Source: Escherichia coli
GTDB taxonomy: Bacteria > Pseudomonadota > Gammaproteobacteria > Enterobacterales > Enterobacteriaceae
Direction: 5' to 3' (one strand)
DNA: 64,000 nt
NCBI RefSeq assembly: GCF_044324785.1
Contig: NZ_CP172127.1
In this document: piece by piece, positions 53,697 to 58,242 of the stretch
Numbering within the stretch: the first letter of the stretch is position 1
Layout: the number at the start of each line of letters is the position of its first letter
The notes under the pieces: model-generated
The model's database searches: none
What the model saw: the letters and a program-made list of their open reading frames with translations, nothing else
What the model was told of the DNA's origin: nothing
Position numbers and translations under genes: made by a program

Positions 53697-54071
53697 TTAC
53701 TCTAATGGTTTTATTAATTGTAAATTTTTAAATGTCATGCTTAATAAGCCATCAGAAAAATAAAGAAAAAATTTATATATCCTTTTGTTTTTTAATTTCT
53801 TTATATACCCATTACTTATATTACCTGACTTGTGATTATCGATTAACTCAGCAGAATCCATAGCGAACACTAAATCATCTACATCAGAAAATTCAACTAT
53901 CATTTTTTCCCTAATGTTCTCATTTTTATAAATGTCAATAAATAACGTCATGTTAAAATGAGATTCTTTGAATGTCGTTTTTACTTCTAACAAAACCCCA
54001 TCATGCCAGTCAATTGAACTCACAATGTCAAAATCGCTCATTATATAATCTCCATTATCCGTTTTAATCAT
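53697..54071 (-). CDS. Candidate immunity protein for the downstream Rhs C-terminal domain, ~124 aa
   Basis: Small low-GC ORF starting at or just after the stop of the rhs C-terminal domain; no signal peptide; alternative start at 54041. Confidence 0.55.
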
Positions 54072-57000
54072 GGAGTAACAACGTTTGCAGGTATTGACCA
54101 CCAAAGAGGTGGTGCAAGTGAAGGTATAAATCGAATCACTCTATATATAACATACCCTGCGCCAATTGTAGCACCAGTTGCAAGAGCCGCATCAGTAGTT
54201 GATAGCCCGGAGGTTTTGCATGACAGATCTTTACTTGGTTCTGGCTCGAAACCATATTTTTTTGCACATTTCTTAATGCTATTTGGTGCTGATGAGTAAT
54301 CCTCACCATGGGACATACCTCCAAATTCCCCCATTACACCACTCCCATTTTTACACTCCCAATGCAAATGTCTTCCGTCACCAACAGCATCGCCATCTAT
54401 TCGGATTCGACAACCTTTACCACAGTCCTTCCATTTTCCTGAAGTATGAGCTAATCCCAATGGATCAATCCATTGCACAGGATTGTTCATAACATAACTG
54501 TACGGGTTTATTCCCCCCGCCAGCCCTATCGGATCCTGGATGATATACCGCCCCTGCAACGGATCGTAGTACCGGTGACGGTTATAATACAGCCCCGACT
54601 CCTCATCGTGTTGCTGCCCAGGCAGACGGTAGGGCTGGTGCAGGTGATGCGGGTTTTCCTCATTCAGCAGGTTTCCCCACTCATCATACTCCCCGCTCCA
54701 CGCCGTATTGCCGTCTTCGCTGATGAGCGCCAGCGGCAGGCCCCGGTGGTCGCAGTGGTAAAGATGAACTTTTCGCGCCGGTGTGTATTCCGGCTCCACC
54801 TGTCTGGCCAGTTGCTCTACCGTCAGCCCGCACTGCGCAAGCCACGCCCGGCTTTCACTGCTCACGCGGTCTGCCCGGATTTCCCCCTCCAGCCTGTCCA
54901 GCATCCTCACAAGTTCTGCCGGGAACACCACACCGTGTCCGTTCTCGCTCCCTTCCTGCTGCAACTTCTCCGCCAGGCTCCGCCGCTGCGTTTTCTCCCG
55001 CTCGCCGTTGTCTGTTTCGATGCGGATGAGTGGTGTGAAGCTTCCCGGCTCGTATACCGTCTGGATACGTGTGCTGTCGGTCTGCACCGTCGTCAGGTGG
55101 TCGCCGTCCCAGCCGTACCACGTCACCTCCGGTTTACGCGACAGCGACATCCACCCCGTCAGGTCACGTACCCGCCGCCACACCCGTTTACCCGTCCGGC
55201 GGCCCAGCGGGTCGTAGAGGTAGCGGCTCTCCACCTGCGGCTCGCCATGCTGTATCCGCGTGTAGAACACCAGGCGGTGCTGGCTGTCGTAGTGGTAGTG
55301 GTGGGTCCGCTCGTCGTCCGTCCGTATCACACCCGCCGGGATGCGGTCCGTCTTCTCCGTCAGCCTGCCGTATTCATCGTGGCGGTAGACATAGTGCGCA
55401 TCCTCCGCGATGCGGTTATCCGGCCACACTGTGAGTGTACTGTCCGGGTGCAGCTCCGGGTCCGGCAGCCGGTTGCCCGCCGGGTCCGTGGCATACGGGA
55501 TGCGGATGTCCAGGTCCGGTGCGAGGGTGCGCACACTCTCCAGCCTGCCCGTGGCGCTGTAGCCGTATTCCCGCGTCTGTCGCGGGCCGCTGATGCGCAC
55601 CAGGTCGCCGTTGTCATTCCACCCGTAGTCACGGTCATACACCAGGCTGTTCAGGTGCTGGCTCTGTAACTGGCCTGCGGGGGTGTATGTGCTGGTCAGT
55701 TCGTATGCGGCATTACTGCCTGCCATGCTGCCGAAGCTGCGCACCGTCTCCCGGTGCAGCCTGTCCCGCGTATACTCGACCCGCGGCGTCCCGCCCAGCT
55801 TCATTCCCGCCAGGTAACCGCTGCCATACGTCAGCCACTCCACCGGCGGCAGGCTGTCCGGCGTGACGCGGTTTGCCAGCCCCTGCTCGTTGTATGCGTG
55901 TTTCGTCTCATGCTGCCACAGCAGTTCCCCCGTCTCCGGGTTCTCCACCGTCTGGCGTTCGCCGGTCAGGCGGCCTTTATCGTCATAGCCGTAGTGGACC
56001 GCCACACGGTGGCCTTCACTGATATGGCTGAGGGTGGTTAACCACCCGTGCTCATCATACTGCCACTGCTCTGCCGGGTCGCCGTTCACCGTCCGGTGCG
56101 TGATGCGGTCTGCTTCATCGTAGTACCACTGCGTGACCTGCCCCTCATCCTAGCTGCGGATGAGCTGCCCTGTGGCGCTGTACCGGTAACGCTGTGTCCT
56201 GCCATCAAAGCCGCGCTGCTCCGTCAGGCGGTCCAGCACATCGTAGGTAAATTCACTCCGGCTGCCGTTCTCGTTGGTCAGCACGGTGATGCGCCCGGCA
56301 GCGTCATACCCCATGCTGCGCGTCAGCCCGCCTTCCGTCACACTCACCGGACGCCCGCGTTTATCATATGCGATGGTGCTGCGTTTACCGTCCGGTGATA
56401 TCGTTGCTGTCAGGTCGCCTGCGGCACTGTACTCATAACGGGTTTCACGCCCCTGCGCATCCTTCTGCCCTGTCAGCCTGCCGCGGCTGTCATAGAGACT
56501 ATAAATACTGAGACCTTCCTCCCGGTGAACGGCGATTTGTTGACCGTACCGGTCATACTCATACCGCGTCATGTACCCCGAGCAGTCCGTGAAGGCCCGA
56601 AGCTGACCGTACCGGTTTCGCGTTATTCTCCGCGTTACCCCGATTCCGTCTTCCACCGCGCCGGGCAGGCTACTGCGGGGGGAGTCATAAAACCAGCGTG
56701 TAATGTTACCGTTGCGCGAGGTCTCTTCTGCCAGTCGGCCCTGACGGTCATATTTCCGGCTGCTGCGTAAACCATCCGGATATGTCACTGAAGTCAGTTG
56801 CAACTGGCTGTTATAGCCATACCACACCGTCCTGCCGTCCGGCAGTATCACTGAAGTCAGCTTTCCAGACGCCATATGCAGCCGGTTCACCGTCCGCCGC
56901 CCCGCCGCATCCGTCTGCGCCTTCAGCCTCCCCGCCTCATCATACTCGCTGCGGGTGATGCTCCCGTCCGCATGCTCCTTCTTCACCACCCGCTTCAGAC

Positions 57001-58242
57001 CACCTTCGCCTTCCGTGTACAGCACCTCCCGCCGGTTCAGGCTGTCCGTGATGGTCACACGGTCCTGCCCGTACTCAAAGCGGTAGTCCAGTCCCTCCTG
57101 GTTGACCTGCTCCGTCACCCGCCCGGTATCATCATACCGGTAGCGGCTCTCCGGCCTCCCTGCATAATGGCGCGCCACCATCCGCCCGGCGTGCTCCGCA
57201 TCATAAGTAAACCCGCGCACCTGCGTCCCGCTGCGGTCATACACCGCCCGCAGTTCTCCGCTGGCCGTGTACGTGTAGCGCGCCAGCGGCGCAGTCGGCT
57301 GTTCATCCGGGTATGCCGGGTCGTGTGTCAGCCACACCGCCTCCAGACGGATACCGTTATCCGTGCCGTATTCTGTACCGGCGGGCAGCGTGTCGGGGAA
57401 AGCTGAAGAAGAGGAAGCAGAACGGGGACCTGCAGGGGAAGATAAAGACGTGGCGCGCTGTTTACGGAGGGCTTCCGCCCGCTGCGCCTGTGTGGTCAGC
57501 GCCAGATGAAAACGGCGGCCCGCGCCGTCCGTCACCCCCGTCACCGCGCCCGCCGCTTCCCCCTCTGCCGCCCGGTGGAAGGCCAGCGTCCGCCCGAAGC
57601 CGTCCACCACGCCCGTCAGCACCCGGTATGCGGGCGGCTCCGGCGGCAGCACCTCGTCCGCCTCCGGCACCCGCTCCGGCCAGCCGAGTATCAGCCACTG
57701 CCCGGTTGTGCTGGCAGCCATCATATAGATGTGTGGACTCAGACGGACCGCTTCCGGCAACGCCCGCCAGAGCCGCGCAAGCGGGTGGCCTTTGTGCTGT
57801 TTCAGCACCCCGCCCCGCGCCAGCCAGAACGACTCACTGCGGCTGTAACTTATCTCGCCGGGAAACAGGGGTTCAAAGTGAATACTTCTGCCGCCACTGT
57901 CGTTGAGTATCAGGCCTTCATCGCGTATCTGTAAGCGGATATCGAAGGGGGCTTTCCAGCCGGGACCAAACACCCCACCGGCGCGGGTGTCCTGGTCCGG
58001 TAGCTGCTGTAAGCGCGAGAAAGAATAAACGGCAGCGGGCCGGGCAGCGCAAGGTCCGTCTCGCCCGGCAGCACCTTCGCACCCAGTAGCGGGTTCAGCG
58101 GGTTAGCATAGGTAATCCCTCCCGGACACACCGAGCAGGCCACTCCCGTCGGCGCACCTATCAGCCCCCCTGCTGAACCCTGCACAATATCCAGTCCCTT
58201 GCGGGTCATGTCACCCTGCCGCGCCGCCGGTTTTCCGCTCAT
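54068..58242 (-). pseudogene. Second rhs copy (PAAR-Rhs core with a distinct C-terminal domain), disrupted by a -1 frameshift and an in-frame stop
   Basis: Three consecutive ORFs (57910..58242, 56150..57973, 54068..56089) together cover a full-length Rhs protein; 1-nt deletion relative to the intact copy just after the PAPVG codons (~57970) and a TAG at 56150..56152; DPIGL motif then a unique ~150-aa tail. Confidence 0.8.
54830..56125. repeat. ~1.3 kb block nearly identical to 59636..60931 (rhs core, copy 2)
   Basis: Identical antisense ORFs recur at a constant +4806 offset (e.g. 55360..55638 vs 60166..60444); the encoded ~430 aa are identical between copies while flanking rhs sequence is clearly diverged. 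Confidence 0.8.

Follow-up and report, generated by a model that had tools for sequence, protein, structure and literature searches.

A pseudogenized second rhs copy in Escherichia coli retains a putative orphan toxin/immunity module

When a tandem copy of an rhs gene has lost its reading frame, is the toxin that it encodes lost to the cell, or could it be deployed again? The question is raised by a 64,000-nucleotide (nt) stretch of Escherichia coli DNA (contig NZ_CP172127.1; hereafter the window, meaning the whole stretch), in which an intact rhs gene (copy A) is followed by a broken one (copy B), each with a small gene behind it. The original prediction held that copy B is inactivated, that its tail and a small immunity gene form a displaced or orphan module, and that recombination could reactivate the pair. 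We found that the region is an ordinary orphan Rhs toxin/immunity module, the toxin type of which is uncharacterized. Orphan tips with their immunity genes are routine at rhs loci, and RefSeq already marks the equivalent gene of strain N3 as a pseudogene. This toxin/immunity pair, present in ~7% of complete E. coli genomes, has never been characterized, and the locus offers a clean natural case in which both lesions lie upstream of a freshly homogenized 1.2-kb tract, so that one crossover would swap the toxin that is deployed.

The reading frame and tail of copy B

Copy B runs on the minus strand from an ATG at 58242 to a TGA at 54068..54070. Its PAAR-like N-terminus and YD-repeat core, colinear with copy A and with RefSeq genes annotated as "RHS element core protein", place it in the Rhs family. 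In the nucleotide alignment of copies A and B, gaps in the core consisted of two in-frame 3-nt insertions and one 1-nt gap. The latter, foreseen as a deletion near position 57970, was placed by aligning both copies with the second copy of strain 19KM1831; it falls in a run of four Gs where the 19KM1831 copy has five and is in frame, and where copy A reads GGGCG. The TAG that had also been held to inactivate the gene occupies a codon that is GAG or GAA in relatives (Table 1). The reading frame is broken into open reading frames (ORFs) of 110, 607, and 673 amino acids (aa) in shifting frames and, owing to the 1-nt loss and the TAG, copy B is an rhs pseudogene that lacks the uninterrupted frame of a functional Rhs effector gene.

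Because the frameshift sits in a homopolymer run, the classic site of long-read error, one could argue that both lesions are assembly errors and that copy B is really intact. We regard this as extremely improbable. The TAG is a substitution, not an indel, and identical lesions were present in strain N3, a separate assembly whose locus is 99.7% identical to the window, with ~30 differences over 12 kb; the copy B equivalent there is described in RefSeq, by the Prokaryotic Genome Annotation Pipeline (PGAP), as "RHS element core protein, frameshifted; internal stop". Since N3 has both lesions in common with the window and otherwise differs from it, its copy A being frameshifted, the lesions are inherited mutations rather than assembly noise, and the predicted inactivation is real. 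Copy A of N3 (4354..8620 of the extracted locus) carries the frameshift in its RefSeq annotation, so that no intact rhs remains in that strain, whereas copy A of the window is intact. Related second copies are also pseudogenes, broken at other positions, which argues for relaxed selection: those of 19KM1831 and of the yafV locus of PCN033 have neither the G loss nor the TAG and carry instead a +1 frameshift at ~nt 1460 to 1572 of the gene, with one further stop in 19KM1831. Second copies decay independently by lineage, a pattern expected if selection is relaxed on a downstream copy that is not deployed.

At the 3' end, the Rhs core closes with the PxxxxDPxGL motif, after which comes a variable tail. 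In comparisons with the orphan copies of other strains, identity rises from ~65% to >99% just upstream of the DPIGL. G+C content falls from 0.64 in the core to 0.44 in the tail and 0.27 in the small ORF. The tail comprises 150 codons, close to the length predicted, and is indeed unrelated to the HExxH tail of copy A, with ~25 to 55% nucleotide identity and many gaps between the two, which is the random level. With a main rhs gene upstream, presumably no means of expression or export by itself, and an intact immunity gene linked to it, this end of copy B has the features of an orphan module. Given the 5' lesions, copy B can form no PAAR-Rhs cage and deliver nothing, and its 3' end persists as an undamaged orphan module native to the locus.

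The two parts of the tail and the small partner gene

A representative search with the whole tail returned 351 matches at E ≤ 0.001, and its upstream part, a small Cys/His-rich domain that we call module 1, was matched in many diverse toxins. Residues C10, R17, H28, H30, W31, C33, H48, P56, and C62 of module 1 are invariant; the RID motif is near-invariant, and its R, the HxH, and the later H are invariant. Versions from Firmicutes that lack the Cys residues are homologous (hhalign probability 97%, E 1e-10) and keep the R, HxH, H, and P. None of 35 members had a Pfam family, searches of NCBIfam and Pfam with module 1 gave no match, and neither did PDB sequence searches with the module-1 and Firmicute-module profiles. 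AlphaFold2 modeled the tail with a predicted local distance difference test (pLDDT) score of >90 across most of residues 1 to 70.

The hydrophobic C-terminus of the tail had been read as suggestive of membrane insertion. It matches Tox-WTIP (PF15654), with both motifs of the family, RxxR (as RVIR) and Wx[ST]IP (as WSIP), and one helix was predicted in it, with low confidence (residues 89 to 108 of the 127-aa model, pLDDT 48 to 69). However, the highest 19-residue Kyte-Doolittle mean was only 1.11 and the segment holds two Arg, making it only moderately hydrophobic. The match takes in the last ~41 residues and only positions 39 to 79 of the 79 in the Pfam model. Tox-WTIP has been proposed as a two-helix pore former linked to RHS repeats, with its motifs defined and no known immunity protein (Zhang et al. 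2012, PMC3482391). Searches of the literature for Tox-WTIP, PF15654, and WTIP-Rhs yielded only this in silico description and no experimental study, and papers on the PCN033 VgrG proteins and on RhsE of enterohemorrhagic E. coli do not deal with the copy B tail. The analysis as a whole suggests that the Pfam label covers a C-terminal accessory part only and hides the real effector domain.

Module 1 and a WTIP end were also seen together in a 1965-aa VgrG-Rhs fusion of Paraburkholderia lycopersici, with a tail 67% identical; the fusion lies within a type VI secretion system (T6SS) cluster, with tssF on one side and PAAR/dotU on the other, and a 114-aa immunity homologue comes after it. Some toxins on Firmicute-like contigs carry a further small His-rich module (YGPDG..D.D..H....PH.H.W..G) directly upstream of WTIP, and in one of them a DUF2691 protein is encoded next downstream.

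The small ORF had been predicted to overlap the rhs stop and to be an immunity gene. Its longest form (53697..54071) exists, has the low G+C content claimed, and begins with an ATG that overlaps the rhs TGA as ATGA. The true start is more likely the ATG at 54041, which gives 114 aa and no overlap, as it has a GGAG 8 nt upstream, is the choice of PGAP (WP_001279013.1), and is where distant homologues begin. In five of five metagenomic or genomic module-1 toxins, three of them with non-WTIP ends, the gene directly downstream was a homologue of this ORF (profile E 1e-28 to 4e-6). A scan of one genome per species found such a homologue in 8 of 9 module-1 loci (Citrobacter youngae, Paraburkholderia lycopersici, Pseudoxanthomonas, Lysobacter, Ignatzschineria, and three uncultured proteobacteria), the exception being Luteibacter, where the tail is visibly degenerate. 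Once one duplicate is removed, the two sets together give a downstream homologue in 12 of 13 module-1 loci, with non-WTIP ends in at least 7 of them. The family is found in E. coli and as far afield as Xanthomonadales, Burkholderiales, and uncultured proteobacteria. By contrast, in three WTIP toxins that carry another upstream module, the protein encoded next was unrelated (in one a DUF2691 protein, in the others a 173-aa helical and a 260-aa protein), with no significant immunity homologue. The immunity family thus goes with module 1 rather than with WTIP, co-varying with the upstream Gly/Cys/His-rich domain, and the hydrophobic end is probably not what the immunity protein neutralizes. At the level of gene association, the small ORF is shown to be the cognate partner of the Cys/His domain. 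One module-1 Rhs toxin locus, in GCA_030818125.1, has a downstream gene (6269..6967 of the extract) encoding 232 aa with two tandem immunity domains.

Neither the ORF nor its homologues belong to a Pfam or NCBIfam family and every database entry is "hypothetical", which would also suit a protein with an accessory or chaperone role, or an ORF that is open by chance in AT-rich DNA. We give that view very little credence, since the ORF is conserved directly downstream of module-1 toxins across distant groups, is kept intact even where the toxin is an orphan fragment, and yields a confident structure model with the fold of an experimentally validated immunity protein, PIM7, its best structural match by a wide margin. 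By sequence, the immunity protein and PIM7 were not matched by hmmsearch of the PDB, hhalign gave an E of 0.25, and our local hidden Markov model did not score PIM7 proteins. No signal peptide or transmembrane segment was predicted in the ORF protein, which points to a cytoplasmic site of neutralization. The gene associations and the modeled fold thus bear out the predicted role as an immunity gene and, by the Salmonella precedent, the gene would still protect its carrier from E. coli that deploy this toxin.

Which part of the tail kills, and how? We consider module 1 to be the toxic part, probably a metal-dependent catalytic domain, and the WTIP end to be not the killing moiety but an exchangeable accessory for membrane targeting or anchoring; it perhaps helps the small domain to reach or cross the target inner membrane after release from the Rhs cage. 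PT7 is a metal-dependent DNase in which alanine at D37, H47, or H73 abolishes toxicity, and D17 of PIM7, in the loop between helix 1 and strand A, contacts the PT7 catalytic residues (Nachmias et al., bioRxiv 10.1101/2021.10.19.465003). In two independent profiles, RMRID37..H47VH49 of PT7 (sequence from 8owu_B) aligned in the same register with RIRID19..H28LH30 of module 1, and H48 of module 1 with H73 of PT7; the hhalign scores were weak throughout (P 0.015 to 0.06, probability 1 to 3%). Module 1 and PT7 gave no significant match to each other in sequence or fold, and the module-1 model did not retrieve the PT7 chain. With moderate confidence, we propose that module 1 acts as a metal-dependent hydrolase through D19, H28, H30, and H48 and is most likely distantly related to the PT7 DNase, and that the immunity protein would block its active site with a conserved acidic WHD loop between helix 1 and strand A, by analogy with Asp17 of PIM7. 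The tip domain of the tail may thus be a DNA-cutting enzyme.

Several points weigh against this account. Downstream proteins of two Firmicute module-1 toxins with WTIP ends were non-significant against the immunity profile, conservation of the WTIP segment is very strong even among toxins whose upstream modules are unrelated, as would fit an active role, and expression, toxicity, immunity, and recombination are all things that we infer. Zhang et al. (2012, PMC3482391) class WTIP as a pore-forming toxin. The main rival to our mechanism follows from this: the WTIP end would itself be the pore former or membrane disrupter, the Cys/His domain a linker or pre-toxin, and the small ORF a protein that holds the tail before export or insertion. 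The Pfam match is significant and includes both defining motifs, and the segment's extreme conservation extends to proteins of the extracellular contractile injection system type that have no other recognized toxin domain. We nevertheless think this rival unlikely, because the immunity family accompanies module 1 with non-WTIP tails and is absent beside WTIP toxins with other upstream modules, the segment's hydropathy is below the usual transmembrane threshold, and the invariant His, Arg, and Cys of module 1 are typical of a catalytic or metal site. The immunity protein, moreover, is soluble, with neither signal peptide nor membrane segment. The known immunity proteins of membrane-targeting effectors are unlike it in this respect.

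Somewhat less unlikely, in our view, though still the weaker reading, is that module 1 is toxic without being a PT7-type DNase. It could be another small metal-binding enzyme or a membrane-proximal effector, and the likeness of its partner to PIM7 could reflect a common beta-sheet fold. The lack of a significant match to PT7 favors this view, as does the obligatory hydrophobic C-terminal segment, absent in PT7, which suggests a membrane-associated target; the RxRID...HxH...H pattern in register with three essential PT7 residues and the wide margin by which PIM7 leads the structural matches argue against it. On balance, we judge it probable that the whole explanation holds, namely an inactivated downstream tandem rhs with a resident module, open to re-arming by a crossover, in which module 1 is PT7-like, WTIP is accessory, and a PIM7-fold protein is the blocker. 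A PT7-like metal-dependent nuclease blocked by the WHD loop of a PIM7-fold protein is a testable hypothesis, and it calls into question the assumed pore-forming role of WTIP. More tentatively, and with somewhat less than even confidence, module 1 might be a widespread unannotated toxin superfamily with Cys-rich proteobacterial and Cys-less Firmicute forms, related to PT7 and always bearing an interchangeable hydrophobic end, with WTIP a modular targeting or translocation tag on many payloads rather than a pore former, and PIM7-fold proteins one broad acidic-loop immunity superfamily.

Origin, spread, and re-arming of the module

The 5' 2.1 kb of copy B are only 60 to 85% identical to copy A. 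Outside N3 and 19KM1831, the best matches to the 5' core (96%) were to the second rhs of a tandem pair that adjoins Hcp-VgrG near yafV, PCN033 being one example. Over 9.5 kb (64000..54512, covering vgrG, copy A, its immunity gene, and the core of copy B), the window is 97.2% colinear with the Hcp-VgrG/yafV locus of PCN033, and this colinearity stops exactly where the copy B tail begins. At its rhsE locus, PCN033 has a single intact rhs (WP_047938343.1), the tail and downstream gene of which are 100% identical to the window over 871 nt. That identity, together with the end of the colinearity, implies that the tail and immunity gene are the resident module and that the tandem cassette recombined in upstream of them. 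The predicted displaced or orphan module therefore stands as far as the tail and immunity gene are concerned, which are a native orphan; the 5' core of copy B, being 97% colinear with the PCN033 yafV cassette, is not a former main gene. The PCN033 yafV locus itself (3258..12007 of the extract) contains an rhs, a 450-nt immunity gene, a 76-nt spacer, and a full-length frameshifted second rhs, and this tandem, 97% colinear with the window, has another tail on its second copy. It appears that homologous recombination carries entire tandem cassettes from one vgrG locus to another, and the rhs copies are recombination mosaics.

Of 5426 complete E. coli genomes, 405 carry the 871-nt module of tail plus ORF, in every case on the chromosome and in 357 with at least 99% identity. 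In an evenly spaced sample of the list of 405 matching genomes, about one-eighth carried it under a full-length "RHS element core protein" and the others under a short "RHS repeat-associated core domain" fragment. The orphan fragment of ATCC 8739 and of strain 537-20, for instance, keeps only ~50 core codons with a stop among them; relative to the window, the tail protein has one conservative change and the immunity protein differs at 1 to 4 residues. In all arrangements examined, the module occupied the most distal position at the rhsE locus, adjoining ISAs1, which fits the C-terminal displacement model of rhs evolution (PMC2935791).

Between the lesions and the tail, copies A and B have a near-identical 1178-bp tract in common, with a longest exact run of 854 bp, whereas the flanking core is 60 to 96% identical. 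The tract differs at 3 to 5 positions in N3 and is 95 to 97% identical in 19KM1831 and PCN033; as these other strains reach only 95 to 97%, the homogenization is recent and lineage-specific. Such near-identity points to gene conversion of recent date between copies A and B. With the second copy of 19KM1831 the tract has 97.4% identity, and with first-copy-type sequences ~96%, a difference that is not decisive for the donor.

Could such a tract return the silent tail to use? An in silico recombinant that joins the 5' part of copy A to the 3' part of copy B within the tract has an open frame of 4170 nt, encoding 1389 aa with no stops, and its product is 96% identical to the intact Rhs of PCN033. 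The locus thus has the homology for in-frame fusion that is expected of an orphan module, and the predicted possibility of reactivation gains a concrete route, both lesions being upstream of the tract. A single RecA-type crossover in the tract would remove the copy A tail, the copy A immunity gene, and both lesions, and would leave an intact Rhs with the copy B tail, arranged as in PCN033. One crossover would in this way re-arm the copy B toxin. Activation of an orphan by recombination between main and orphan genes has been shown experimentally in Salmonella LT2 (PMC3967940).

The locus and its known counterparts

By the RefSeq annotation of matching loci, the window locus is the vgrG-linked rhsE/ydcC locus of the E. 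coli chromosome. A 5-kb query over copy B matched strain N3 at 99.9% over its full length, and thousands of further genomes were matched via the conserved rhs core. Gene order at the matching loci is ansP-yncG-yncH-vgrG-rhs-(small gene)-rhs-(small gene)-ISAs1 ydcC-...-yddH-nhoA-yddE-narIWHZ, and the window genes vgrG, both rhs copies, both small genes, and the ISAs1 transposase gene are all on the minus strand. The vgrG directly upstream of copy A provides the linkage expected of an Rhs T6SS effector gene. Coordinates are given in Table 1.

Table 1. Features of the tandem rhs region, in window coordinates
Feature	Position	Strand	Remarks
vgrG	63110..>64000	-	directly upstream of copy A
rhs copy A, intact main copy, 1420 aa, HExxH tail	58781..63043	-
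Tract counterpart in copy A	59757..60934	-	mismatch at 60611
Copy A immunity gene, 149 aa	58319..58768	-	signal-peptide-like N-terminus
rhs copy B, full-length pseudogene	54068..58242	-	PAAR-like N-terminus, YD-repeat core, DPIGL, variable tail
Frameshift site in copy B	57973..57976	-	G4 run, GGTGGGGTG; in-frame relative has G5
Premature TAG in copy B	56150..56152	-	GAG in 19KM1831, GAA in copy A
Near-identical tract in copy B, 1178 bp	54951..56128	-	downstream of both lesions; one mismatch at 55805
DPIGL, end of Rhs core (PxxxxDPxGL), exchangeable-module boundary	54521..54535	-	TIGR03696 Rhs_assc_core, E 6.5e-10, above curated cut-off
Variable tail of copy B (toxin region), 150 aa, intact frame	54071..54520	-	100% identical to tail of intact PCN033 WP_047938343.1
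Module 1, 67-aa Cys/His-rich soluble domain	54248..54448	-	putative catalytic toxin domain; motifs RHLHWEC, SHG
Tox-WTIP (PF15654), hydrophobic C-terminal segment	54071..54193	-	Pfam E 2.8e-13, score 50.3; motifs RVIR, WSIP
Copy B cognate immunity gene, 114 aa	53697..54041	-	WP_001279013.1; alternative upstream ATG 54071
Terminator-like site	53630..53661	-	perfect inverted repeat with 14-bp stem, then T-rich run; 36 nt past immunity stop; consensus scan only
ISAs1/H-repeat transposase gene (ydcC)	52214..53350	-	adjoins module

The inverted repeat behind the immunity gene is a possible terminator closing the module. Scanned for promoters, neither the surroundings of the immunity gene nor the spacer that separates copies A and B scored better than shuffled sequence. 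The ydcC of the window has an in-frame TAG at 53291..53293 (codon 20); that of N3 is likewise labeled "internal stop" in RefSeq, and the gene is intact in PCN033 and 19KM1831. For the HExxH tail of copy A (58781..59300), the best Pfam hit was Peptidase_M91, at a non-significant E of 0.089. Its 149-aa partner has a signal-peptide-like N-terminus (MMKYLMVLLSLFSASVLG), in contrast to the cytoplasmic partner of copy B. A tail of this type with a secreted-type partner suggests a metallopeptidase acting in the periplasm.

The locus has its chromosomal position (ansP-yncG-yncH ... ydcC-pptA-yddH-nhoA-narZ operon) and its association with an ISAs1 element in common with the rhsE-ydcD-ydcC (ISAs1/H-repeat) locus of E. 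coli K-12. We take the two to be the same locus, a link made through RefSeq gene names and general background rather than through K-12 sequence.

With the Tox-WTIP family (PMC3482391), the copy B tail has the C-terminal motifs and the association with RHS repeats in common; it differs in matching only the C-terminal half of the model and in having a linked immunity family that goes with the upstream Cys/His domain. With PT7/PIM7 of Bacillus (PDB 8owu), the common element is the immunity fold seen in the copy B model, neither partner having significant profile similarity. The proteobacterial module 1 departs from PT7 in its four conserved Cys, in one additional helix, and in a hydrophobic C-terminal extension that is obligatory, and its delivery is by T6SS-Rhs proteins, whereas PT7 is carried by LXG proteins of the type VII secretion system or by pre-toxin-TG proteins. 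On plasmids of the Bacillus cereus group, stand-alone 78-aa PT7 ORFs are annotated "transposase", as is PDB 8owu_B, and PT7 homologues have substitutions at catalytic positions in strains SEM-15 (D37A and H49D) and N435 (H49Y). Such stand-alone ORFs probably represent toxin genes that are orphaned or in decay but still have their PIM7 partner.

The closest counterpart of the arrangement as a whole is the rhs-orphan type of Salmonella Typhimurium LT2 (Koskiniemi et al. 2014, PMC3967940; Poole et al. 2011, PMC3150448; displacement model, Jackson et al. 2009, PMC2935791). There, as here, an expressed main rhs is followed by a silent tip with its immunity gene, homology in the core permits recombinational fusion with the main gene, and G+C content drops sharply at the DPxGL boundary. 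The silent copy in the window differs from the LT2 type in being a full-length rhs (4.2 kb) with two point lesions rather than a short 3' fragment, and in having a core that belongs to a tandem cassette also present at a second vgrG locus. The same module takes the classical short-fragment form in most of the other E. coli genomes that carry it.

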